DNA of 32,000 nucleotides from Thermofilum pendens Hrk 5 (GCF_000015225.1 NC_008698.1:1320001-1352000), one strand, 5' to 3'. Counted from the first letter of the stretch, positions 1 to 31,609 are shown. The notes: generated from the sequence alone by a model not told the origin. A program made the numbers and translations.

Positions 1-549
1 TACGAGGAAGGGGTTGGCGGACGACGTGAGCCTATCGATGGCGTTCCTGTGCTCGGCGGCAAGCCCCACGTCGGTCGGGGTAGCCCCCGCGACGGCGGCT
101 TCTTCTCCATCGTCGACGAGCACGGCGTCACCCCCCTTGAGGACGACGACCTTCAGCCTCTTCGAGAGCTCTCCTACGAGCTCCGCGCAGGGAGCCACGC
201 CGCACCCAGCGGTGTCTAGGGCCTCTGCCAGCCTCCTCGCGCCGCCCAGGGTGGCGTACAGCCTAACCTTCCTGCCGAGCCCCGCGGACTTCGACAGCGA
301 GGCGTGCACCACGCCCTGGGGTGCGAGAGGCACCAGCGGCACGAGCCTGCCCCCGTCGTGGAGAGCCGGAAGAATAGCGGAGGCCGCAACCCGCCCCTCC
401 AGCACTGCGCGTAGCAAGCCGGTATCCCCCGTCATAGACGCTACGCTCGCGAGGGCACGGAGCACGGCTGCGGCTGGGACTACGCGCTCCGGCCTGCGGT
501 ACCCGACCCTGAACCCCTTCTCAAAGTCCACCCTGAACGCTTCGAGCAT
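1..549 (-). CDS. csm4: Type III CRISPR effector subunit, Csm4/Cas5-family RAMP; N-terminal 183 codons only, gene continues past the left edge
   Basis: My own translation of the minus strand from ATG at 549 gives MLEAFRVDFEKGFRVGYRRPERVVPAAAVLRALASV...GLAAEHRNAIDRLTSSANPFLV. It is open in frame to position 1. The N-terminal pattern and the RNAIDRxT motif are typical of Csm4/Cmr3-type RAMPs. It starts 6 nt after the csm3 stop. It is absent from the ORF track because no stop lies in the window. The + strand ORF 14..625 is its antisense shadow. Confidence 0.6.
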   Translation of the reverse strand, partial: MLEAFRVDFEKGFRVGYRRPERVVPAAAVLRALASVASMTGDTGLLRAVLEGRVAASAILPALHDGGRLVPLVPLAPQGVVHASLSKSAGLGRKVRLYATLGGARRLAEALDTAGCGVAPCAELVGELSKRLKVVVLKGGDAVLVDDGEEAAVAGATPTDVGLAAEHRNAIDRLTSSANPFLV

Positions 550-554
550 GAAGT

Positions 555-1559
555 CTACCCGAAGAGCGTCTTCTCCACTTCTCCTGCTATCTCGTCCACC
601 TTGCCCAGCAGAGCTTCGACGCTAGCTAGGTCCGCTAGCTTCCTGTACTCGGGCTTCTCCGCGCCGAAGGTCTTCATTACCTCCACCGAGATGTCCTTGA
701 ACTTCACCCTGCCGTACCCCCTGCTACCGGAGGCGCCCAGGTACGTCTCCTCCACCAGCCTGAGCCCCTTGGCGACTAGCTCGAGGTTCCTCTTCACGTA
801 CCCCTTGTCGATGTCGAAAACGAGTAGCCTCAACGCTCCCTGGAACACCACCCCCGGCTTGACGCGGGCAACCTGCCTCGGGTCAGCCGCGGAGGTTATC
901 CTGTCGATCCTGTTCTCGCCTTTCTCTTCGAGGAAGTCCGAGATCGCCAGGATCCTCCTGCCGTTCTCGCTGAGCACGCCAACGTAGTCCTTGTCCGGGG
1001 TCATGTCGTCGACCAGCAGCCTCGTTAGCGCAAGGTTCAGCGCCAGGCTTCGGGCAACCTTCCCCGCCTCTTCGTAGTCGGCGTCATCGGGTTCCTCTTT
1101 GCCCTGCTTCGAAGCTAAGTCTCTGGCAAGCATTTCGACGAGCTGGTCGAAGCCCACGGCGGGAGATCCAAATACTTCGTCTACTTCGCACCTACCGCTT
1201 ATGTCCCGAATTAGCTCGTCTGTGGACATCGGATGAGCACGGGTACCCCAGAGGATTCTCGCATGGAGCCATATCCTCTCGTCCGAGGTGTAAAGGCGCT
1301 TGCCGAGCGAGAGCTCCAAGAGCCCGCGCATCCTCCCCTTCAGGCTGGAGCCGGGGACCAGCGGAACCTCCACTTCGACTTCCGCGCCGCCGAGGCTGTA
1401 CTTGCGCTTGGTCACGATCGGGTAGAGGTCTGCGCCCCCGATCCTGTATACCTGGGCGTGGACGGGCATCCTGATCAGGAGGCCCGTGACTGTCTCCATC
1501 TTCAAGCCTAGCCTGACTATGCCCCGTAGCTCCCTTTGAAGCGCGGACATGGCTATCAC
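555..1559 (-). CDS. csm3: Type III CRISPR backbone subunit Csm3 (Cas7-family RAMP)
   Basis: The motif set matches Csm3/Cmr4: PGSSLKGRMRGLLE glycine-rich loop, IGGADLYP (candidate catalytic Asp), ENRIDRITSAADPRQVARVKPG, and C-terminal GASGSRGYGRVKF. A GAGGTGA Shine-Dalgarno box lies 5 nt before ATG 1550, so the true start is probably 1550 rather than GTG 1559. Confidence 0.8.
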   Translation of the reverse strand: MIAMSALQRELRGIVRLGLKMETVTGLLIRMPVHAQVYRIGGADLYPIVTKRKYSLGGAEVEVEVPLVPGSSLKGRMRGLLELSLGKRLYTSDERIWLHARILWGTRAHPMSTDELIRDISGRCEVDEVFGSPAVGFDQLVEMLARDLASKQGKEEPDDADYEEAGKVARSLALNLALTRLLVDDMTPDKDYVGVLSENGRRILAISDFLEEKGENRIDRITSAADPRQVARVKPGVVFQGALRLLVFDIDKGYVKRNLELVAKGLRLVEETYLGASGSRGYGRVKFKDISVEVMKTFGAEKPEYRKLADLASVEALLGKVDEIAGEVEKTLFG

Positions 1560-1975
1560 CTCTCGTATTTGTAGACTAGCACGGCGAGAGCATCGAGGAT
1601 CGCGCGCCCGCGCTCTGCGACTTCGATGAGATCTCCTCTGTTGTTAAGCCTGCTAGCCACGCTGTCTAGGACTCTCATTACGACCTGGTATATCCCGTCG
1701 CTTATCTGCTTCCTGGCCCACTGGTAACTTACGATGGTCTTCGCGCGTGCCAGCTCGAGCGAGGCCCTAGCTGTACTTGGAGTGCTTCTCGTTAGGTAGT
1801 CGAGAACAGTGCCCACCACCTCGTGGATCCTCCTATAGGCAGTGGTGGTAGTTTTACCGACGAGTTCCTGCGAGGCGAGAATGGCGTCAACCGCTTCGAG
1901 AACCTTTCCGGCGTTCAGGGCGTCGGTTATCAGTTTATCGAGGTTGCGCGGGAGGTGCGAATACTTCTTCGACAC
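1556..1975 (-). CDS. csm2: Putative type III small subunit (Csm2/Cas11-like)
   Basis: 139-aa ORF that looks helical, directly upstream of csm3 and overlapping it by 4 nt. Its size, position, and the KTTTTAYRRIHE and SYQWARKQ segments resemble Csm2 small-subunit segments. The GTG start lies 27 nt downstream of a TTTATAC box, which fits a leaderless transcript. The family call is by eye only. Confidence 0.5.
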   Translation of the reverse strand: MSKKYSHLPRNLDKLITDALNAGKVLEAVDAILASQELVGKTTTTAYRRIHEVVGTVLDYLTRSTPSTARASLELARAKTIVSYQWARKQISDGIYQVVMRVLDSVASRLNNRGDLIEVAERGRAILDALAVLVYKYER

Positions 1976-4774: not shown

Positions 4775-5320
4775 GTGCCGGGTTTTTCGCTTTGGGTGGT
4801 CTCAGTGTTGCATATAGGTGTGGCGGCTCACAGCTCTGGCTCTGACGCTGAGAGGGCTTGGAGGTTTGTCTCGGCTTTGCCGGGCGGTGTTAGGGTGTTG
4901 CTTGGGGGTTACTGGGGTGTTATGAGGGACGTGGCTGAAGCCGCTAGGAGGAGGGGTTTGACCGTGGTGTTCTTCCTGCCGGTCGACCCTCCGGCGGAGG
5001 TCCCGGACGACGAGCTCTTCGTCCGCGTGGATACGGGGCTCGACTTGAGGGGGAGGAGCGTGGCGCTCGTGAGGAGCTCTGACGCGCTGGCGGTGCTTGG
5101 GGGCGAGGTTGGCACGGTGGTGGAGGCTTTCCTCGCCTACTCCTACGGGAAGCCCGTCGCGGTGCTGAGGGGGACTGGGCTCTCGTCGGACGCGCTGGAG
5201 CGCGCCTTCCCGCGGGGCTTCGACGGCAGGGGGAGCGCCCCGGTTGTCTACGTGGATACCCCGGAGGAGCTAGCCGCTAGGGTCGTGGAGCTAGCCGCGT
5301 CGAGGCGGGGGCGCAGGTAG
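4775..5320 (+). CDS. LOG/SLOG-superfamily Rossmann protein (TIGR00725-like)
   Basis: GGYWGVMRDVAEAARRRG and LGGEVGTVVEAF (the GGxGTxxE motif) are LOG-family hallmarks. The length fits the short archaeal TIGR00725 type. The likely real start is GTG 4805 (MLHIGVAAHSSGS). Confidence 0.7.
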   Translation: MPGFSLWVVSVLHIGVAAHSSGSDAERAWRFVSALPGGVRVLLGGYWGVMRDVAEAARRRGLTVVFFLPVDPPAEVPDDELFVRVDTGLDLRGRSVALVRSSDALAVLGGEVGTVVEAFLAYSYGKPVAVLRGTGLSSDALERAFPRGFDGRGSAPVVYVDTPEELAARVVELAASRRGRR

Positions 5321-5328
5321 CGCTCGCG

Positions 5329-5850
5329 CTACTCCCGGCGGCTCCTGGCCTTCCTCAGGGCTTCCCCCGCGAAGTCTAGTAGCCACTTCACCACGGGCCT
5401 CGCCGCCGCGACGTCTTCCACCCTGTACTTGGCCTCGTGGAAGCCCCACACGTGTATCTCGTAGGCCTTGGACCACGCCAGGTGTACCCTCTCGTCCCCG
5501 AGGATCCTGGAGAGGTCTGTGGCCGCCATGCCGAGTAGCCATGTGTCCCACCTGCCTCTCTCCCTGACTTTCTCCAGCGTTGGGGCGTTGAAGCCCTCTG
5601 CCAGCGCCTTGATGCACTCCTCGGCAACTTTGTACAGCTTCTCGCTCGCCTGGACTGGGTCGCCTTTGCCCAGGTACTCGTCGGCCTCCTCCATGAACTT
5701 CGCCGCGAGCTCGAGCCTAGCCTCGGCGACAACCTCAGGGTCCAAGTCGAGCGCTTTCGACAACGCGTCTACCACGAGGCTCTCGACGCTCAACCCCCTC
5801 TTCTCGACCTCCTCTACGAGCCTCCTCGGGATAACCACTGTCTTCTCCAT
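5329..5850 (-). CDS. PaREP1-family protein (archaeal helical family)
   Basis: EARLELAAKFMEEADEYLGKGDPVQASEKLYKVAEECIKALAE...RGRWDTWLL...AWSKAYEIHVWGFHEAK matches my memory of the PaREP1 consensus. Confidence 0.65.
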   Translation of the reverse strand: MEKTVVIPRRLVEEVEKRGLSVESLVVDALSKALDLDPEVVAEARLELAAKFMEEADEYLGKGDPVQASEKLYKVAEECIKALAEGFNAPTLEKVRERGRWDTWLLGMAATDLSRILGDERVHLAWSKAYEIHVWGFHEAKYRVEDVAAARPVVKWLLDFAGEALRKARSRRE

Positions 5851-15250: not shown

Positions 15251-16288
15251 CTAGGCCCGCTCGTGCACGCCGCTCAGGGCCCTTCTCACGGCCTCCCTGT
15301 GGATCGGTGTTTGCCACGCGTAGAACCTCCCTATGCCGAGGGAGGGGTCCTTCTCCGGTGGCGCCTTGTCCAGCCAGCCGTAGCCCCTGTCGGGGATCTC
15401 CGCTACTAGGTTGAGCTCTACGAGGGAGTCTACGAGCCTCTCGATTGACGGCTCGCCTCTCTTCAGGTACTCGAGAAGCCTGTCCGGGTCCTCTACGGCC
15501 TCCGAGAGAGCTTCGAGTTGCAGGGGCGTTAGCCTTGAGGCGAACGCTTTAAGCCTCCTGGCGGATACCACCTCCTCTACTAGCGAGCCTGCGTCCCAGC
15601 CGTGCTCGTAGAGCATAGCGAGGTACCTGGGGTTGCCCCCCGTCAGCCTCCACGCGGAGTCGAAGTCGAGCCCCGGCCCGGGTATCTGATCGTAGAGCTC
15701 CTTGAAGCCTTCCCTCGCCATGTTCCAGAGCACCCTTATCGTAGCCCAGCTGTGCCTGGCAACCCTAGCCCTCGTGGTGCCCTCGCTTGAGCCTATAATC
15801 GCGACGAAGCTCTCGTACCTCGCGGAGGGGTACTCGATGGCGTCTAGAAGTGCTTTCACGTAGACCTCCGCCCTCTCGGGGCCGACGGCCTGGAAGACTT
15901 CGTCGAGTATAACCGCCACCCTCCTTTTAACGCTTAACAGCCTCGATACGAGCTCGAAGGCTTTCTCCGCGAGCGTAGCCGCCGCGGGCTCCAGCAGGCC
16001 GACCGTAGCTCCGACAATCTCCTTCACGTCCTCGGTCGACACGACCTTCTCGTCCTTCACACTGGCAGCGGGGTTAACGTAGACCACCCCGTAGCCATGG
16101 CTCTTGAGTATCTCCACGGCCTGCCTGAAGAGAGCAGTCTTACCGCAACCCTCCGGCCCGTAGACGACTACCGGGAACCTCGTACCCCTCTCGGCTACCC
16201 TCTCCACCTGCCTCAAGGCCTCGTCCCTATCGGCGAACCTCACGGACACTCCTCTGGCGAACTCCAGCCTTACCCTCTCCCACCCCAT
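15251..16288 (-). CDS. Archaeal ATPase family protein (Arch_ATPase, PF01637-type AAA+/STAND-like NTPase)
   Basis: FADRDEALRQVERVAERGTRFPVVVYGPEGCGKTALF contains the Walker A motif, and VAVILDEVFQ is the Walker B motif. The helical C-terminal half is as in this family. Confidence 0.8.
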   Translation of the reverse strand: MGWERVRLEFARGVSVRFADRDEALRQVERVAERGTRFPVVVYGPEGCGKTALFRQAVEILKSHGYGVVYVNPAASVKDEKVVSTEDVKEIVGATVGLLEPAAATLAEKAFELVSRLLSVKRRVAVILDEVFQAVGPERAEVYVKALLDAIEYPSARYESFVAIIGSSEGTTRARVARHSWATIRVLWNMAREGFKELYDQIPGPGLDFDSAWRLTGGNPRYLAMLYEHGWDAGSLVEEVVSARRLKAFASRLTPLQLEALSEAVEDPDRLLEYLKRGEPSIERLVDSLVELNLVAEIPDRGYGWLDKAPPEKDPSLGIGRFYAWQTPIHREAVRRALSGVHERA

Positions 16289-24304: not shown

Positions 24305-24307
24305 AAG

Positions 24308-24329
24308 TTTCAACTTTTTTCTTTTCTTT
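24308..24329 (+). terminator. Oligo-T terminator after the protease gene
   Basis: tttcaacttttttcttttcttt follows directly after the TAA stop. Oligo-T tracts are the established archaeal termination signal. Confidence 0.5.
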
Positions 24330-24446: not shown

Positions 24447-24680
24447 ATGAGCGCGACTGTTAGCTTCAAGGTGAGGAGGGAGGTCAAGGAGAAGATGCTG
24501 AGGTACAGGGACAGGGTCGACTGGCCCGAGGAGCTCAGGAGGTTCGTCGAGGAGAAGATAAGGGAGATAGAGGCCCGCGAGAACATAGAGAGAGTTGTCA
24601 GCGAGCTGGAGAGCATCCCGGCCGGCGTCCCGCGGGGCTTCGCGGCGGCCTCCGTGAGGGAGGATCGTGACAGTGGTTGA
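24447..24680 (+). CDS. vapB: VapB-type antitoxin (copy 2)
   Basis: 77-aa ORF that overlaps the downstream PIN gene by 14 nt. It has the same layout as copy 1 (TVSFKVRREVKEKM... ending SVREDRDSG, compared with IIREDREAR). Confidence 0.65.
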   Translation: MSATVSFKVRREVKEKMLRYRDRVDWPEELRRFVEEKIREIEARENIERVVSELESIPAGVPRGFAAASVREDRDSG

Positions 24681-25074
24681 CGCCTCGGCCCTAGCGGCCT
24701 TCGTCTTGAAGGAGCCCGGCTGGAAGAGCCTGGCGGAGTACCTCGTGGGCGCCGTGTCCGTAGACATGGTCGTGAAGGAAGTGGCGAACGCTGTCTGGAA
24801 GGCGTGCAGGGTTAGGGGCTACGTGGGCGTGGAGGAGGCGCGCAGGCTTCTACGCGTCCTTAAGTCGATGATCGGTGTCAACATAGAGCTTAGGCCGGAG
24901 GCCGACTACCTGGACGCGGCCTTCGAGATAGCGGTGGAGCACGGGGTTACCGTGTACGACGCCCTCTACTTGGCGCTGGCGGTCGAGGAGGGCGAGCCGT
25001 TGCTGACTCTCGACGAGAGGCAGCTGAGAGTGGCGGGGAAGCTGGGGGTCAGGGTCGTCGAGGTTCGGCTCTAG
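24667..25074 (+). CDS. vapC: PIN-domain toxin VapC (copy 2)
   Basis: MTVVDASALAAFVL, VKEVANAVWK, VYDALYLALA and LLTLDERQ are the PIN acidic motifs. Confidence 0.85.
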   Translation: MTVVDASALAAFVLKEPGWKSLAEYLVGAVSVDMVVKEVANAVWKACRVRGYVGVEEARRLLRVLKSMIGVNIELRPEADYLDAAFEIAVEHGVTVYDALYLALAVEEGEPLLTLDERQLRVAGKLGVRVVEVRL

Positions 25075-25077
25075 CGC

Positions 25078-25965
25078 CTACTCTCGCGGCTCGGCTTTCC
25101 CGGGGAGCGCGAGCCTGTAGCCGGAGTGTATCCTGTGGGCGCGCCCGCCGAAAGCCTTGAGTAGCGCGGCCTCGCCGCGTAGCCCCGTGCAGTGCCCGGC
25201 GTGTATCTCCTCTACGCCCAGCGAGGATAGCTCCGAGACTACCCTCTCGACTTCCTCCGCTGTGGCGCCCGCCAGGTGGAGCCCGCCGATAACGGTTACC
25301 GTGCGCGCACCGGTGACTAGCAACGCTTTGCGCACCAGGTTGGAGATCCCCGAGTGGCTACAGCCAGCCACGAGTAGAGCCTTATCCCCGACTCTCACCG
25401 CGAGCCCCGTGTCGTCTAGTAGCTTGTCCTCCACGACCTCCCCGCCGCTCAGCGTGTAGAACCCTTTAACCGCGTACGAGTTGTCGTAGATCCTCTCGAC
25501 CTCCCCGAGGAACCACGCCCCCGGCGCGAGCTCTAGGGGTGCCCTCGTCAGTACGAGCTCCGAGCCCCCGGCCACCTCCTCCCACGCCTTCGCCGGGAGG
25601 GCGACGGAGAACCTCTTGAAGCCCCCGGAGTCCGCGTAGCTAGGCTTCACGACGTCCGGGTGGGCTACCACGGGCTTGAAGCCTGCCTTCTCGAGCAGGG
25701 CAGGCAACCCGCCCGCGTGGTCGTAGTGCCTGTGCGACAAGACCACCGCGTCCACTTCTTCGAGGCTTAAGCGGAGAGAGGAGGCGTTCTCGAGGAGGAC
25801 CCTACCGCTCCGGCCAGTGTCGAATAGAACCCTGTACTTCGACCCGTCGTCGTAGCTTAGCGAGAGGTATACGCTGAACCCGTGCTCGGCGAGGAGCCTC
25901 GAGAAGCCCGCGTAGTCGTCCACGAGGACCGTTACCTCCACTCCTATGAGTGATGGTCTCGGCAT
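25078..25965 (-). CDS. MBL-fold metallo-hydrolase
   Basis: VEVTVLVDDYAG...AEHGFS...LFDTG...VVLSHRHYDHAGGLPAL contains the HxHxDH motif, and GHCTG occurs later. The start is set at ATG 25965 (MPRPSLIGVEV). The 31 upstream codons of the track ORF are basic and low-complexity. Confidence 0.8.
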   Translation of the reverse strand: MPRPSLIGVEVTVLVDDYAGFSRLLAEHGFSVYLSLSYDDGSKYRVLFDTGRSGRVLLENASSLRLSLEEVDAVVLSHRHYDHAGGLPALLEKAGFKPVVAHPDVVKPSYADSGGFKRFSVALPAKAWEEVAGGSELVLTRAPLELAPGAWFLGEVERIYDNSYAVKGFYTLSGGEVVEDKLLDDTGLAVRVGDKALLVAGCSHSGISNLVRKALLVTGARTVTVIGGLHLAGATAEEVERVVSELSSLGVEEIHAGHCTGLRGEAALLKAFGGRAHRIHSGYRLALPGKAEPRE

Positions 25966-26143
25966 TTCTACCGCGGTTAAAGGCGGGGCGCGCCTAGATA
26001 ACCTTGCCGCTTGTTTCACGGGGCTACGGCTGTCTATCCGTACTCCTTTCACCCTCACACCTATAAGGGCCTGGAGGATTTTTCGGTCTTGAAACCGAAA
26101 CTTTTATAAATGATGTGCCAAAGGGTTAGAAAACCGATAAGCC

Positions 26144-26545
26144 ATGGAGGCTGGGGCTAGCGGCTCCCAGCAACCCCAGCAGGGCCGTAAAAGACCCCTA
26201 GGAGTAACGATCCTTGCGTACCTCTACCTGTTCTCAGGGATATTCGTCCTCGGAATGGTCCAGGCCATGATGGCAGAAAACCTCCCCGCCGAAACCTTCC
26301 TTGCCTGGCTCCTCTATGGAGTAGCCCTGATGGCTACGGGTGTCGGATTCATGTACGGCATGAAGTGGGCTTGGTGGCTCGCCGTAGTAAACCAGTCGCT
26401 ATCAGCCCTCATAATGCTCGTCCTAACGGTCATAAATGACCCGATATGGCTCTTTGGGCTATTCATCTCCTTGGTAGTTCTGTACTACGTGCTTAGGCCC
26501 CACGTGAAGGAATTCTTCGGAGTCGAGGCGGGACCCTCTAAGTGA
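26144..26545 (+). CDS. Small integral membrane protein (about 4 TM), function unknown
   Basis: Four hydrophobic stretches are present. A TTTTATAAA box lies about 35 nt upstream. The gene is AT-richer than its neighbours. Confidence 0.55.
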   Translation: MEAGASGSQQPQQGRKRPLGVTILAYLYLFSGIFVLGMVQAMMAENLPAETFLAWLLYGVALMATGVGFMYGMKWAWWLAVVNQSLSALIMLVLTVINDPIWLFGLFISLVVLYYVLRPHVKEFFGVEAGPSK

Positions 26546-26652
26546 AGACCCCCTGAAGCGAGATTTCTTTACCGCGCGCCAACTCCGTTGTACTTTCACC
26601 CTAGACTGCGTGATAGCTTTTTATCCTCGGAGACCGTTAACGCCTGGTAGCG

Positions 26653-27837
26653 ATGGAGGGCGCGGCTCTGAGAGTTTCGGAGGAGATTCTCGCCTCCGTG
26701 GAGAGGAGGGTCGAGGAGCTCGCTGAGAAGATCGAGGGCTCGCCCTTTAAGAGCGCGGGCTTCGTCGACGGGAGCAACGTGGTCGACGAGCGCAGGGGGG
26801 CTTACGTCGCCGTGTTCTCGGTGGCTTCGATAGTGCTCGACTCCGGTAGGCTTAGGCCCGTCTCCCACGGCTCGAGGCACCCGCTCGTGGCGCGCATCGT
26901 GCCGAAGGGTTTCGGGGAGCAGAGGGCGAACCTCTACATGTCGATACTCGAGCTCCTCTCGGCGGCCAGGCTGGTGAGGTCCGGCGTCGAGGCGGTCTTC
27001 CTCGACGGTAGCTACGTCTCGGAGATGATGGTCGTCTTCGGCTACCCTAGGGACGTCTACGAGGAGGCGCAGGGGCTCGTCGACAGGGAGGCGGCCGAGA
27101 GCTACGCCGGGGAGGCGGCGGGGCTCGTGGAGGAGGCGCTCGGCTCGGAGGGCGTTAAAGGCGCGGCGAAGCTCTTCGAGGGAGTCTCGGGCCTAGCGTG
27201 GAGGCTTTACACGAGGCTCGGCGGGGGCGTGGGTGGCGTCGAGAAGAGGGTCCTCCTGGACTACTCGTACGTCTTCGCCGAGGTAGCCGTGTACCTCGAA
27301 GCCCTGCGAAGCCTCCTGACGGCGGGGCGGGAGTCCGGGGTCCCCCTCTTCTGGGTAGCCAAGGACGCCGACACAGACCAGCTGGCCGAGAAGGAGGGGG
27401 TCGGCGGCTGGCTCAACGACGTGACTCTCCTCGACTACGCGTGGCGGCGCCTGGAGGGTGTCTACACGGTGCTCGAAGGCAGGGAGTTCGGGAGGCCGAA
27501 GCCCTGCGCCGCTCCGGGAAAGCTCGTGGAGGAGCTCTTCGCCAAGTGGAGGCGGTACAGGGTCGCCTACTTCAAGCTCAGGCTCCACGGCCCGGTGCTC
27601 CAGATGACGTTCCCCGGCTACGTGGGGGAGGACGAGGCCAGGGAAGCCCTCGCGACGCTCAGCTCGCTGGCCGAGAGCCGCGGGTACCCGAAGCCCCTCA
27701 GCTACGTGCACAACATGGCCGTGCTGAACCCGGAGCTAGCCAGGCTCGTCGGAGACGAGCTTTATAAGCGGGCGGAGAGCCCTGTACTCAAGGCTATGCT
27801 CGCGCCCTCCGGGAGGGTGCAGGCAGGGCTGAGGTGA
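26653..27837 (+). CDS. nurA: NurA-family 5'-3' nuclease
   Basis: GFVDGSNVVDERRGAYVAVFSVA (first catalytic Asp), ILELLS, VFLDGSYVSE (second Asp) and the C-terminal PLSYVHNMAVL (His) follow the NurA motif order. It sits immediately upstream of herA. Confidence 0.7.
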   Translation: MEGAALRVSEEILASVERRVEELAEKIEGSPFKSAGFVDGSNVVDERRGAYVAVFSVASIVLDSGRLRPVSHGSRHPLVARIVPKGFGEQRANLYMSILELLSAARLVRSGVEAVFLDGSYVSEMMVVFGYPRDVYEEAQGLVDREAAESYAGEAAGLVEEALGSEGVKGAAKLFEGVSGLAWRLYTRLGGGVGGVEKRVLLDYSYVFAEVAVYLEALRSLLTAGRESGVPLFWVAKDADTDQLAEKEGVGGWLNDVTLLDYAWRRLEGVYTVLEGREFGRPKPCAAPGKLVEELFAKWRRYRVAYFKLRLHGPVLQMTFPGYVGEDEAREALATLSSLAESRGYPKPLSYVHNMAVLNPELARLVGDELYKRAESPVLKAMLAPSGRVQAGLR

Positions 27838-27844
27838 GCCTGGG

Positions 27845-29524
27845 GTGGAGGTTGGAAGGGTAGTTACGGTGTACGGGCAGAGCCTCCTGAGGTTCGCGGT
27901 CCACGAGGACAAGCTGGGCTACCTGGCGAGGCCGGGCGCGTACGTGAAGGTGGAGGCCTCCGGCGGCTGGTCCTACGCGATGGTCGTCAGCTTCAACCTT
28001 CTCGACGAGCTGTACAGGAAGAGCAGGATAGTGGAGGAGCTCGAGGGCTACCCGGAGATAAGGCCGTCCCGGAACGAGCTCGTAGCGATGCTCGTCGGCT
28101 ACTACGACGGCAAGGGCTTCGTGAGGGGTGTCCCGGAGCTACCGAGGCCCGGGCAGAAGGTCTACCTAGCGGACGGGGAGGAGCTGGCGAGGTTCGTCGG
28201 CTCCGGGGACATAGCGATAGGCAGGCTCTCGCAGAACCCCGAGGTCAGGTACACCCTCTCGCTCGACATGCTCTGCTCGCGCCACTTCGCCGTCCTAGCG
28301 ATGACGGGCGCCGGGAAGTCCAACGCAGTCGCGGTGATACTCGGCGAGATACTCGAGAAGTTCCCCTACTCCAGGGTCGTAGTTGTGGATACGCACAACG
28401 AGTACGTCCCGCTGGCCGAGAAGTTCGATAGGGTGAGGGTCCTGAGCCCCGCCGGCAGGATAGCGAGGCTCGTGGAGGCTAGGTACGGCGTGAAGCCGTC
28501 CCCGCTCGAGGTCCCGATATGGACCCTCGGGCTCGAGGAGATCGCGGGGCTACTCCGATTGGACCCCACGAGGGCGACGAAGCAGGTCATGTACCTGCGC
28601 GGCGCCCTCCAGGAGGTCCGGAGGGCTAGGTACAAGTACGCGGGGGCCGACGACCCCATATACTTCAGGGCGGAGGAGCTCCTCGGCTACCTGGAGGGGT
28701 TGCAGAAGTCGTCGAGGCAGAGGTACGACCGCTCCCTCGACGACCTCGTCTTGAAGCTCGAGATGCTCCTCGAGAACAGCGAGCTACGCTACGTGACTAG
28801 GCCGAGGAACAGCGACAGGCTCTACGAGGGGTTAGGCGGCGAGGAGCCCCGGAGGAGCGTCGAGGCGTACATGAGGGTCTACGGGGCCCTGCTGGAGCCT
28901 GGCGTCACGCTGATAGCGCTGGGAGGGCTCGCTAGCGACGCCCAGGTATCGACCGCCGCGACCATACTCAAGTCGCTCTGGAGGATAATAACGGCCAGCG
29001 TCCTCGCAGGCAAGCCCCAGCCAACGCTCCTGGTAGTCGAGGAGGCCCACAACTACGCCCCGCAGGGGAGGTGGAGCCCCGCACGCGAGATACTGGAGAA
29101 GATAGCGAAGGAGGGTAGGAAGTTCGGCATAGGGCTCGGGGTCGTGAGCCAGAGGCCCAGGGAGCTCTCGCAGACGCTCCTAGCCCAGTGCGGGACGCTG
29201 ATAGCGCTTAGAACGGCGAACCCGAGGGACCAGGAGTACATACTCGGGAGCATGGAGGACGTGATGCGCGAGATGGTTGAAGGGCTCTCGGGGCTCGTGA
29301 CCGGCGAGGCTCTCATCTCGGGCTCCGCCGCCCCCCTGCCCGGCATAGTCAGGATAGACAGCTTCCCCGAGAGGTACGGCGTCAACCTGGGAGGCAAGGA
29401 CATAGACTGGAGGGCGGCGTGGAGCACGCCCCAGCCGAAAGCAGACCTAGCGGAGTACGTGCTCGGAGAGCCGGAGGAGGAAGAGGAGGAGAGGAAGACC
29501 TCCACCATAGACAAGTTCCTCTAG
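27845..29524 (+). CDS. herA: HerA-family (FtsK/HerA superfamily) hexameric ATPase/helicase
   Basis: The N-terminus is HAS-barrel-like (GRVVTVYGQSLLRFAV...YVKVE). Walker A is AMTGAGKSNAV and Walker B is LLVVEEAHNYAP. GIGLGVVSQRPRELSQTLLAQCGTLIALRTANPRDQEYI is also present. The GTG start lies 7 nt after the nurA stop and is preceded by a GAGGTGA SD. Confidence 0.85.
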   Translation: MEVGRVVTVYGQSLLRFAVHEDKLGYLARPGAYVKVEASGGWSYAMVVSFNLLDELYRKSRIVEELEGYPEIRPSRNELVAMLVGYYDGKGFVRGVPELPRPGQKVYLADGEELARFVGSGDIAIGRLSQNPEVRYTLSLDMLCSRHFAVLAMTGAGKSNAVAVILGEILEKFPYSRVVVVDTHNEYVPLAEKFDRVRVLSPAGRIARLVEARYGVKPSPLEVPIWTLGLEEIAGLLRLDPTRATKQVMYLRGALQEVRRARYKYAGADDPIYFRAEELLGYLEGLQKSSRQRYDRSLDDLVLKLEMLLENSELRYVTRPRNSDRLYEGLGGEEPRRSVEAYMRVYGALLEPGVTLIALGGLASDAQVSTAATILKSLWRIITASVLAGKPQPTLLVVEEAHNYAPQGRWSPAREILEKIAKEGRKFGIGLGVVSQRPRELSQTLLAQCGTLIALRTANPRDQEYILGSMEDVMREMVEGLSGLVTGEALISGSAAPLPGIVRIDSFPERYGVNLGGKDIDWRAAWSTPQPKADLAEYVLGEPEEEEEERKTSTIDKFL

Positions 29525-30424
29525 GTGGCCGCCGTGGACCTGCGCAGGATCGGGGAGCTCGTCGGGAAGACTCCGGTGCTAGAGCTGGACGTGCCGCCCG
29601 GCAAGGTCTACGTGAAGCTCGAGTACACGAACCCTACGGGTAGCCACAAGGACCGCATAGCCGTCTACATGCTGAGGAGCGCCGTGGAGGAGGGGGTTCT
29701 GAGGCCCGGGGGAAGCTTCGTCGAGGCTTCGAGCGGCAACACGGCTGTAAGCCTCGCGTGGGCCGGGGTACTGGCGGGCTTCAAGCCCATCATATTCGCG
29801 GAGGACACAATCTCCAAGGGGAAGCTCGGGCTACTGCTAGGCATGGGGGCGGAGGTCCACCTGGTTCCGAGGAAGCCCTGGGGCGACCCGGACCACTACG
29901 TGAATGCTGCGAAGAGGTTCGCGGAGGAGAACGGCCTGCCCTTCCTCAACCAGTACGGGAACGAGGCGAACTGGCGGGCCCACTACGAGACGACGGGGCC
30001 GGAGCTGTTGAGCCAGACAGGCGGCGTAGACGCGTTCGTAATGGGGATAGGCACCGGGGGAACGGTGATAGGCATCGGGAAGTACCTGAAGGAGAGGGTC
30101 CCCGAAGCCCGGGTGGTCGGCGTCGTGCCCAAGGGCTCCCCCATCGCCGGCGGCAGGCTCGGAGACAACATAGAGGGGTTAGCGTCGACGTTCGTCCCGG
30201 AGCTCTACGAGAGGCATGGGCGCGTGGTGGACTCCGTGGAGGAAGTCTCCCTCGCGGACGCCCTCTCCTCGCTGAAGGACCTCCTGCGCGCGGGAGTCCT
30301 CGCGGGGCCCTCCACGGGCGCGAGCTTCCACGTGGCGAGGAGGCTCGCCTCCAGGGGCCTCAGGGTCGCGATAATCGCGGCGGACTCGGTGCTGAGGTAC
30401 CCCGACCTTCTATCCACGCAATAA
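29525..30424 (+). CDS. PLP-dependent cysteine synthase / CBS-family (tryptophan-synthase-beta fold) enzyme
   Basis: YTNPTGSHKDRIA contains the PLP lysine. ASSGNTAVSLA, GIGTGGTVIGIGKYLKE and AGPSTGASF are also present. The GTG start is the nucleotide immediately after the herA TAG. Confidence 0.85.
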   Translation: MAAVDLRRIGELVGKTPVLELDVPPGKVYVKLEYTNPTGSHKDRIAVYMLRSAVEEGVLRPGGSFVEASSGNTAVSLAWAGVLAGFKPIIFAEDTISKGKLGLLLGMGAEVHLVPRKPWGDPDHYVNAAKRFAEENGLPFLNQYGNEANWRAHYETTGPELLSQTGGVDAFVMGIGTGGTVIGIGKYLKERVPEARVVGVVPKGSPIAGGRLGDNIEGLASTFVPELYERHGRVVDSVEEVSLADALSSLKDLLRAGVLAGPSTGASFHVARRLASRGLRVAIIAADSVLRYPDLLSTQ

Positions 30425-30463
30425 AGTTTATCTTTACTGGAACCTTTTGATATATCGAGGCAT

Positions 30464-30628
30464 ATGAAGTGCTCCATATGCGGTAGGGAAGTCGACTCGC
30501 TACTATACGCGGACCACAAGGAGCTGGGAGGAGTCTGGGTCTGCAGGGAGTGCTGGGAGAAGCTGTACGAAAAGAACCTCATCCGGAGCGGCACCGGCGA
30601 ATCCTCGGGGTGCGCCTGCGGAGGTTAG
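30464..30628 (+). CDS. 54-aa zinc-ribbon protein with Cys-rich Gly-Gly C-terminus (not in the ORF track)
   Basis: My own translation is MKCSICGREVDSLLYADHKELGGVWVCRECWEKLYEKNLIRSGTGESSGCACGG*. It has two CxxC pairs 20 residues apart. Codon usage matches neighbouring genes. An AT box (aaagtttatcttta) lies about 30 nt upstream. Confidence 0.45.
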   Translation: MKCSICGREVDSLLYADHKELGGVWVCRECWEKLYEKNLIRSGTGESSGCACGG

Positions 30629-30648: not shown

Positions 30649-31101
30649 CTAAGCCTCCCCGCCCGCGCCCCGCGAAAGCCTCGCAGCTTCTTCGTAAAGC
30701 TGCCTGACGAGCTCCAAGGTTATCTTTGCGTCTCTGAGGGCTTTCTCGGCGTCCATCCTCGTATACAGCTCCTCCGGGGGTAAGCCGCTCTCCTCGTCCC
30801 CGTACATGGCCGCTTCCCTCTCCTTCCTAAGGCTCCTCGAGATCGACGCGAGCTCGTCTACCCTCTCCTGGAACCACGCCGGGAACCTTGCCCTCTCCCT
30901 TCTAAGCACGGGGCCGACGTCGTGCCATTTAGGCGGCTCGATGCCCACGATTCTAAGCGCCGCCTTGAGTAGTAGCTCTACGGTCTCCTGGCACTGCCTA
31001 ACAACGTAGGGGTAGTTGCCGCCTTCCAGAGCCTCGGTCGCTTGCCTCACGATTTCCAGGGCCTGGTTTATGTGGGACCTAGCGAGCTCCAGGTTATTCA
31101 A
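30649..31101 (-). CDS. HEPN-domain protein (partner of the upstream nucleotidyltransferase)
   Basis: It has a four-helix HEPN-like layout (ARSHINQALEIVRQATEAL...VVRQCQETVELLLKAAL...REAAMYGD). It overlaps the MNT gene by 8 nt. I see no clear Rx4-6H motif. Confidence 0.75.
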   Translation of the reverse strand: MNNLELARSHINQALEIVRQATEALEGGNYPYVVRQCQETVELLLKAALRIVGIEPPKWHDVGPVLRRERARFPAWFQERVDELASISRSLRKEREAAMYGDEESGLPPEELYTRMDAEKALRDAKITLELVRQLYEEAARLSRGAGGEA

Positions 31102-31609
31102 GCTCTACCACCTCGCCGAACCTGTACTCGCCCTTCAACACCCAGTACCACGCCCTACCGCTCACCCACACCCTCCTAGCTCCGAGCCTCCTCAGCCTCT
31201 CCGACAGCGCCCTCAGCACGCCCTCGAAGAAGCCGCCCTTGTCGTATACTATCACCGCGTCCTCGACCATGTCCAGGTATAGCGGCGAGAACCTCCCAGC
31301 CTCCTCCCTAGTCTTGATGACCGGGGACAAGGACACGTAGTACCCCTTCTCCATCAGCTCGTCGAGCAACGGCTGTACCTCGTCCTCAGCCCTCTCGAAC
31401 AGCCTAACCCTCTCCACCCTCGACTTCGGCAAATCCTCGAAGACTACGAGCAAGTCCAGGTCGCTGTCCCTCCTCGGGCTCCCCCTAGCCACGCTACCGT
31501 AGACGACCAGGGAAACCAGGGAGCCCCCGTAGAGCCTTAGCAGGGACTCTAGTAGCCCGACAACCAACGCCCTGTAAGGCTCCGGGATATGCTCAACGCC
31601 AAACTTCAT
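31094..31609 (-). CDS. Minimal nucleotidyltransferase (MNT, NTP_transf_2/PF01909-type)
   Basis: VVYGSVARGSPRRDSDLDLLVVF is the GSxxRG...DxD polymerase-beta-type motif. It lies upstream of and overlaps the HEPN gene. Confidence 0.85.
   Translation of the reverse strand: MKFGVEHIPEPYRALVVGLLESLLRLYGGSLVSLVVYGSVARGSPRRDSDLDLLVVFEDLPKSRVERVRLFERAEDEVQPLLDELMEKGYYVSLSPVIKTREEAGRFSPLYLDMVEDAVIVYDKGGFFEGVLRALSERLRRLGARRVWVSGRAWYWVLKGEYRFGEVVELE

Follow-up and report, generated by a model that had tools for sequence, protein, structure and literature searches.

Which task do the adjoining genes nurA and herA perform in Thermofilum pendens Hrk5, a hot-spring archaeon, and does the gene behind them take part in it? 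The question is raised by a stretch of 32,000 nucleotides (nt) of the genome (NC_008698.1:1320001-1352000), which is called the window here and whose positions are counted from its first letter. An earlier note on this DNA had proposed a paralogous HerA-NurA machine with a defence or other non-canonical role, followed by a gene for a pyridoxal phosphate (PLP) enzyme that could be either a functional partner or a chance neighbour. We slightly favour the reading that the pair is a damage-responsive machine for processing DNA ends, probably a second set in this genome; the PLP gene is a passenger.

The three genes are arranged head to tail on the + strand. nurA (26653..27837) encodes a predicted RNase-H-like nuclease subunit of 394 amino acids (aa; ABL78790, A1S010), and herA (27845..29524) encodes a 559 aa member of the FtsK-HerA superfamily, a predicted hexameric translocase of double-stranded DNA (dsDNA; ABL78791, A1S011). 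A gene of the cysteine-synthase/cystathionine beta-synthase (CBS) family occupies 29525..30424 (ABL78792, A1S012; annotated start 29534). Exact look-up identified the window proteins as those of T. pendens Hrk5 (ABL78790-78792), and the accessions of adjoining genes run consecutively. A Pfam scan recovered NurA (1.6e-16), the HerA central domain DUF87 (6.4e-33), and PALP (2.1e-66). A putative Shine-Dalgarno box, GAGGTGA, was read at 27831..27837 (+); it contains the nurA stop codon TGA (27835-27837) and is followed by 7 nt (27838-27844) and then by the herA GTG at 27845. The last base of the herA TAG is 29524, directly followed by a GTG at 29525; the deposited PLP protein (296 aa) begins at the next in-frame GTG, 29534, so that the herA-PLP gap is 9 nt with this start codon and 0 nt with the earlier one. 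The three open reading frames (ORFs), the 7-nt gap, the GAGGTGA box, and the position of the PLP GTG were all as the earlier note had described them. It had also reported that the window lacks mre11 and rad50, and no homologue of either was found across the 32 kb. We conclude that nurA-herA is a bona fide, intact two-gene operon.

NurA was recognized by the Pfam domain PF09376 (61 bits against a cut-off of 21), and its AlphaFold2 model had a mean predicted local distance difference test (pLDDT) score of 92. Among 26 aligned sequences, D39 (in FVDGS), E100, D118 (FLDGSY), D238, H353 (YVHN), and D368 were invariant, so the motifs that had looked catalytic at first reading (D39, D118, and H353) held up. 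A single-sequence query with NurA gave no match among PDB sequences; a profile built from the 26 sequences reached S. solfataricus NurA (2YGK) and aligned D39 with the catalytic D58. As for structure, the top 10 Foldseek matches of the model were all archaeal NurA (Thermococcus kodakarensis 9X1M, Pyrococcus furiosus 3TAI, and S. solfataricus 2YGK), the best having E values of 1e-13 to 1e-12 and template modelling (TM) scores of 0.6-0.7, while Deinococcus radiodurans NurA (E 7.5e-4, TM 0.35) and TdpB were far weaker matches. By modelled structure, the nearest NurA is that of archaeal mre11-rad50 operons. On the NCBIfam repair equivalog NurA scored 20.7 bits (cut-off 400), and the control, Pyrococcus horikoshii NurA, passed (684 vs 650). 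The NCBI name for the nuclease is 'DNA double-strand break repair nuclease NurA'.

HerA is intact as well, and its DUF87 match lies above the cut-off. Its Walker A residues G155, G157, K158, and S159 and Walker B residues E399 and E400 were invariant in 49 homologues, in agreement with the earlier description of both motifs as intact. The AlphaFold2 model (pLDDT 85) showed strands at residues 2-52 and 77-108, followed by an alpha/beta RecA-like core. The modelled fold combines an N-terminal beta-barrel of the HAS type with a RecA-like core, the arrangement of solved HerAs; the Pfam HAS-barrel model gave no match to the window HerA. By homology with these structures, HerA is predicted to form a hexameric ring and to act as an ATP-driven dsDNA translocase. 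Residues 53-75 form the sole low-confidence loop of the N-terminal barrel (pLDDT 33-58), and within it the 49 homologues all share D54, E55, and Y57, and almost all share L56. This loop may be a partner- or DNA-contacting element particular to the clade described below.

We then considered which kind of HerA this is. The NCBIfam equivalogs used were NF040819, NF040937, NF041033, and NF041032. The window HerA scored 205 bits on the repair model NF040819 (cut-off 970) and 155 bits on the Thermoprotei repair model NF040937 (cut-off 800). On the antiphage equivalogs it scored 157 (cut-off 850) and 134 (cut-off 800), reaching neither. In comparison, the control P. horikoshii HerA scored 997 on NF040819, passing the cut-off of 970, 283 on NF040937, and approximately 121 on the antiphage models. 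The clade is thus farther from both repair families (155-205 bits) than those are from each other (283 bits). Judged by these sequence scores, HerA is not orthologous to either curated repair-type family. Its distances to repair-type and to antiphage HerAs are roughly equal, and, since it also reached no equivalog cut-off, we assign it to a distinct clade.

These results bear on the possibility, which we consider unlikely, that the pair is an antiviral or anti-plasmid module resembling SIR2-HerA and DUF4297-HerA, in which HerA would be sensor and motor and NurA would shred foreign linear dsDNA. Such a role is favoured by the HerA_antiphage_2 scores (157-190 bits), which are as good as those on the repair models, and by the fold. 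Foldseek E values for SIR2-HerA and DUF4297-HerA structures (1e-34 to 1e-29) were about equal to those for repair HerAs; the matches to 8WOD, 4D2I, and 9X1M had E values of 2e-34 to 1e-31 and TM scores of 0.6-0.75. The structure search was discarded as a discriminator, as it did not separate repair-type from antiphage HerAs. Matches to PADLOC HerA models were likewise dropped as evidence for defence, because the canonical Pyrococcus HerA used as a control is also matched by all of these models, which makes them non-discriminating; PADLOC gave no match for the NurA partner. The best PDB sequence matches of HerA were T. kodakarensis HerA (169 bits), DUF4297-HerA (149), SIR2-HerA (146), and S. 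solfataricus HerA (116).

The distribution of the pair was more informative. The nurA-herA adjacency was kept in approximately 35 loci from Thermofilaceae, some other Thermoproteota, and Njord/Asgard metagenome-assembled genomes (MAGs), and a GTDB-wide scan (80 best matches) added Thermofilaceae, Desulfurococcales, Pyrodictiaceae, Njordarchaeota, Nitrososphaerota, and Asgard MAGs. HerA identity was 70-75% in Thermofilum, about 50% in Infirmifilum, and about 40% in the Njord/Asgard MAGs and others, followed by a gap to about 32%; this grading tracks taxonomy. In tblastn searches NurA lay beside HerA in essentially every clade locus, and the identities of NurA and HerA to the T. pendens proteins co-varied (r = 0.99). 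Gene tables showed nurA followed by herA in Infirmifilum uzonense, several Thermofilaceae MAGs, and one further MAG, and the reversed order, herA then nurA, in a Njordarchaeia MAG. Mre11 was not found within 8-10 kb of any of the approximately 35 clade loci, using Mre11 and Rad50 queries from the canonical P. horikoshii operon that did detect the positive control, a Nezhaarchaeales herA-mre11-rad50 locus (L061). The proposal of a stand-alone pair without mre11 and rad50 was therefore genuine. These stand-alone NurA-HerA loci make up a separate clade that is passed on vertically and is present throughout Thermofilaceae.

Two observations on individual members of this distribution are given here. 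One Thermofilaceae MAG, S1_Bin_Bin_224_sub_1 (the source of both L015 and L039), carries a full clade herA and, at another contig edge, a partial second herA covering residues 75-280 with 69% identity. A mixture of strains, faulty binning, or gene duplication might each account for this. In one Thermofilaceae-related lineage (L037 3542-8951; L088 10001-15389), an 817 aa SMC/Rad50-like ATPase, the one SMC-like neighbour among the clade loci, overlaps the start of nurA by 4 nt, in an apparent operon with nurA-herA. This protein has a Walker A motif, long coiled coils, and a central CPVC hook, and its gene comes after crenactin. A crenactin/Arcadin_1 cluster with the SMC-like gene also occurs without nurA-herA (L089 10001-12430). 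It was rejected as a Rad50 link, having few relatives, none of them in T. pendens, and belonging to the crenactin/Arcadin_1 cluster; it may resemble arcadin-4. The fusion of a hook-bearing, Rad50-like protein with NurA-HerA may nevertheless merit attention.

The same distribution argues against defence, as defence genes are usually patchy in distribution and the pair occurs in one copy per genome, inherited vertically across the whole family with taxonomy-graded divergence. No clade member was found on viral contigs. The flanking genes vary by locus and are mostly housekeeping genes; in I. uzonense they encode the proteasome, tRNA-splicing endonuclease, MoaC, and PRPP synthetase. In T. pendens the pair is flanked by vapBC (24447-25074) and HEPN-MNT (30649-31609), both recognized by Pfam, with a type III CRISPR module at a distance of 25 kb; all of these would suit a defence module. 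The two toxin-antitoxin modules named in the earlier note are indeed there, but their weight as defence context was not upheld, because modules of this type (vapBC, HEPN-MNT) recur about once per 4 kb throughout the clade loci.

Additional evidence came from the nurA promoter. A TATA-like box, CTTTTTATCC, was read at 26617..26626 (+), centred approximately 31 nt before the ATG, and orthologous nurA promoters carry TATA-like TTTAA or TTTAT in the equivalent place. This spacing suggests that nurA is transcribed with no leader or almost none. ACTTTCA (26592..26598, +; 61 nt before the ATG), an instance of A[CG]TTTC[AG], lies about 20 nt upstream of the putative TATA box. In an alignment of nine otherwise diverged nurA promoters, A[CG]TTTC plus a purine was the sole invariant block, and in seven Thermofilum-group loci the element lies at -55 to -63 from the start codon. 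The motif was present in 12 of 20 nurA promoters and in 1 of 131 other promoter-like regions from the same loci (Fisher 8e-12, a value that overstates independence because the nurA promoters share ancestry). The single exception among the 131 belonged to a divergent gene for a metallo-beta-lactamase (MBL)-fold protein, which is therefore the first candidate for a further member of a putative regulon.

In Sulfolobus, Orc1-2 binds a DNA-damage-responsive element (DDRE), 5'-ANTTTC-3', with AGTTTCRG as the core of a 20-bp consensus, and induction by 4-nitroquinoline 1-oxide (NQO) requires it; DNA damage raises the expression of nurA, rad50, mre11, and herA in S. islandicus (PMC6061795). Compared with the Orc1-2/DDRE regulon of Sulfolobales (Sun et al. 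2018; Le et al. 2017), A[CG]TTTC[AG] fits both 5'-ANTTTC-3' and the AGTTTCRG core and likewise lies just upstream of the TATA box, whereas its distance from the ATG is -55 to -63 here and -23 to -55 there. Whether Orc1-2 homologues outside Sulfolobales act likewise was flagged by the authors as an open question. The nurA promoter element thus resembles, in sequence, the Orc1-2-bound DNA-damage element, and nurA-herA is probably switched on by DNA damage. This motif speaks against defence as well, since it points to a damage response.

Two further DDRE-like sites were seen in the window. AAAAGTTTCGGTTTCAAG lies on the minus strand at approximately 26096-26102, within an inverted repeat, TTTCGGTCTTGAAACCGAAA, beside TTTTATAAA (26081-26109). 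It is located between the MBL-fold gene (25078-26058, -; divergent, 500 bp upstream of nurA) and a small membrane ORF of 133 aa (26144-26545, +), which itself lies between the MBL-fold gene and nurA. On the sense strand, AGTTTCA occurs at 24306-24312, right after the stop of a subtilisin-like gene and approximately 140 nt upstream of vapB (24447). A sigma-70 promoter and terminator scan was set aside as uninformative for an archaeon.

In the proposed mechanism, nurA-herA would be transcribed from its own near-leaderless promoter. By homology with solved archaeal complexes, the HerA hexamer would use ATP to thread a dsDNA end through its central channel and feed the DNA into the NurA dimer, whose RNase-H-like active sites would cut the strands. 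The HerA6-NurA2 architecture and ATP-driven dsDNA feeding have been solved for T. kodakarensis (PMC12977600). The DDRE-like element suggests that the pair would be used in damage-linked end processing, either recombinational repair or the disposal of broken DNA. Probably it would do so as the second HerA-NurA set of a genome that carries, at another site, a cluster of the herA-(mre11)-rad50 type.

To place this second set, we compared published identifiers. A Thermus paper cites Tpen_1571 as a T. pendens HerA homologue, in a CRISPR survey Tpen_1359 appears among the accessory genes adjacent to type III systems, and a chromosome conformation capture (3C) study names ABL77933 and ABL78969 as the T. 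pendens SMC-domain proteins. The type III cassette at the left edge of the window corresponds approximately to ABL78754-78762 (Cas10, RAMPs, Cas6, and Csa3). The distance between the two locus tags (1571 - 1359 = 212) matches that between the cassette and ABL78969 (207-215 coding sequences, CDS), which would put Tpen_1571 next to ABL78969 and approximately 176 CDS from ABL78791. ABL77933 lies 8 CDS from an Alba gene, like the crenactin/arcadin cluster layout of L088 and L089, and because it fits that cluster ABL78969 is the Rad50 candidate. A diadenylate cyclase corresponding to Tpen_1359, which would have served as an exact anchor, was not recognizable by Pfam in the window or in the 10 kb to its left, and the arithmetic therefore gives an offset range. 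On this basis a second, Rad50-linked HerA very probably exists in T. pendens, and the window pair would be a paralogue if Tpen_1571 does lie beside an SMC/Rad50-like gene. The earlier idea of a paralogous, non-canonical HerA-NurA thus retains its first part, given that HerA is not an orthologue of the curated repair HerAs and that tag arithmetic points to another HerA, and loses its defence role.

The competing explanation at this point is that the window pair is the sole HerA-NurA of T. pendens, an ordinary recombination-repair machine that has become unlinked from mre11-rad50 and evolves fast. In its favour, the pair is universal in Thermofilaceae loci, its NurA is structurally nearest to that of mre11-rad50 operons, T. 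kodakarensis HerA is the best PDB sequence match of its HerA, NCBI labels the nuclease as a repair enzyme, and the case for a second herA/nurA comes from tag arithmetic and not from sequence. We nevertheless regard this explanation as improbable. The arithmetic, which is free of any offset between the two numbering systems, sets a different HerA homologue beside ABL78969, and the clade stands farther from the repair HerA families than those stand from each other. Pyrodictiaceae and Desulfurococcales MAGs contain members of the clade as well, and these orders carry the canonical operon. In addition, multiple pairs per genome have a precedent in Pyrobaculum, with at least three nurA-herA pairs (PMC3396285). 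This work on Thermoproteales is a precedent for a single crenarchaeal genome with several vertically inherited nurA-herA pairs, one of the recombination type and others of unknown role (Bernick et al. 2012, PMC3396285).

The PLP gene was the remaining candidate member of the system. Its product gave 224 bits on PALP, 217 bits on its best NCBIfam model, cysKM (cut-off 344), and approximately 170 bits to many O-acetylserine sulfhydrylase (OASS; cysteine synthase) and CBS structures, and it is placed at the level of the family, as an ordinary fold-type II cysteine-synthase/CBS enzyme. The gene is probably read through from herA in T. pendens, given the 0-9 nt spacing and the absence of any TATA-like sequence in the 150 nt upstream. 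The T-rich spacer behind its stop, AGTTTATCTTTAC...CCTTTTGATATAT (30425..30463, +), likely combines the transcript end with the promoter of the next small gene. The tight spacing and missing TATA-like element would also suit a functional three-gene system in which the PLP enzyme acts with or on the nuclease complex, a notion to which we give hardly any credence. A PLP gene behind herA was found in T. pendens only and in none of the approximately 35 related loci, including those with 70-75% HerA identity; the enzyme is ordinary; and equally tight, unrelated packing is known from Thermus, where nurA-hepA lies 4-13 bp from malic-enzyme and glycine-cleavage genes. The suggested partnership was refuted by this lack of conservation, which is the test that the earlier note itself had set for it. 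The nurA-herA order is conserved and the PLP gene is not, so the other option once offered for it, a chance neighbour, is the better description of this species-specific passenger. In T. pendens alone, an ordinary metabolic gene would have come to sit at the end of the operon with no functional link.

Right after the PLP gene, a 54 aa ORF with a four-Cys zinc ribbon (30464-30628) has its own TATA-like sequence, GATATAT, and weak matches to DUF4428 and the ClpX zinc finger; it was missed by the gene caller of the Logan contig. At its other end, the window begins inside the type III CRISPR-Cas module (window 1-1975; L091 1-9956), which lies approximately 25 kb from nurA and is unlinked to nurA in other genomes. 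It comprises a 139 aa gene, a RAMP (555-1559, -), two further subunits, Cas10 (919 aa), Cas6, a PDDEXK_10/DUF3782 protein, and Csa3. Between the two ends, window 4775-5850 and 15251-16288 contain genes for a SLOG-cluster4 (LDcluster4) protein, a PaREP1-family protein, and an archaeal ATPase_2/nSTAND-like ATPase. Genes of the SLOG-cluster4, PaREP1, and ATPase_2/nSTAND types are frequent in conflict and signalling neighbourhoods.

Several points weigh against a damage-responsive second set. The HerA score on the antiphage models (157) is about as good as that on the repair models (155-205 bits), and the full-length match to PADLOC PDLC04105, which also counts in favour of defence, is stronger for this HerA (257 bits) than for the canonical Pyrococcus HerA (180). 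The second copy in T. pendens was deduced from accession and locus-tag arithmetic, not from sequence. The promoter motif is absent or degenerate in 8 of the 20 loci, including I. uzonense (ACTTTTAG), and DDRE function has been demonstrated in Sulfolobales only, which are also the subject of the motif literature that we found. Moreover, opinion on what archaeal HerA-NurA does is divided: it may serve end resection, or else the wholesale destruction of dsDNA or defence. A 2026 study of T. kodakarensis argues that even the operon-type complex degrades both strands, and its authors suggest a possible antiviral function (PMC12977600). On balance, we found no specific support for a defence role. Family-wide vertical inheritance, mostly housekeeping contexts, no occurrence on viral contigs, an operon-type NurA, and a damage-like promoter motif all speak against the earlier suggestion of one, and damage-linked end processing by a probable second set remains the explanation that we favour.

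A pair found across a whole family, always apart from Mre11-Rad50 and probably in the company of an operon-type set, is a natural separation-of-function case, and its DDRE-like promoter element offers a testable handle on the Orc1-2 damage regulon outside Sulfolobales. More speculatively, and with clearly less confidence, the promoter sequences raise the possibility that Thermofilales possess a second, dedicated NurA-HerA machine under the control of a DNA-damage circuit of the Orc1-2/DDRE type. If true, the regulon known from Sulfolobales only would extend across Thermoproteota, and the clade would be its nuclease arm, serving for example in Mre11-Rad50-free resection or in clearing broken or imported DNA.

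The pair can be compared with four groups of known systems. It shares with the antiphage systems SIR2-HerA/Nezha (8J4U, 8WIV) and DUF4297-HerA (9C1M, 8XAU, 8ZIQ) the HerA fold and ATPase core (109-149 bits) and the two-gene layout of motor plus effector. In contrast, the effector here is NurA rather than SIR2 or DUF4297, and those systems are bacterial and patchy whereas the pair is family-wide in archaea. Unlike the CRISPR-associated nurA-csm6-herA arrangement of Thermoproteales, the T. pendens genes are separated by a 7-nt gap with no csm6 between them and no adjoining CRISPR array, and the nearest cas genes end at approximately window 1975, 25 kb away. No Pyrobaculum or Thermoproteaceae loci were among the 80 best GTDB matches, indicating that the clade is not a Pyrobaculum group.

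The stand-alone bacterial pairs, Thermus thermophilus NurA-HepA and D. radiodurans DR0836/DR0837 (7F6D), are alike in the nurA-then-herA order, the absence of sbcCD/mre11-rad50, the tight packing among unrelated metabolic genes, and a HerA of about 560-580 aa. They differ in that the structural match to D. radiodurans NurA is weak, D. radiodurans HerA is not among the PDB sequence matches, and the identity of bacterial HerAs to the clade HerA is just 27-33%. The archaeal herA-mre11-rad50-nurA operon (T. kodakarensis 9X1L-9X1P, P. furiosus 3TAI, S. solfataricus 4D2I and 2YGK) differs in having mre11 and rad50, which adjoin the pair neither here nor in any clade locus, and in its gene order, which here is nurA then herA; the NCBIfam equivalogs for the operon-type proteins were also missed by a wide margin. 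Nevertheless, the two proteins and their folds are the same, and the HerA6-NurA2 dsDNA-feeding mechanism is expected to be shared.

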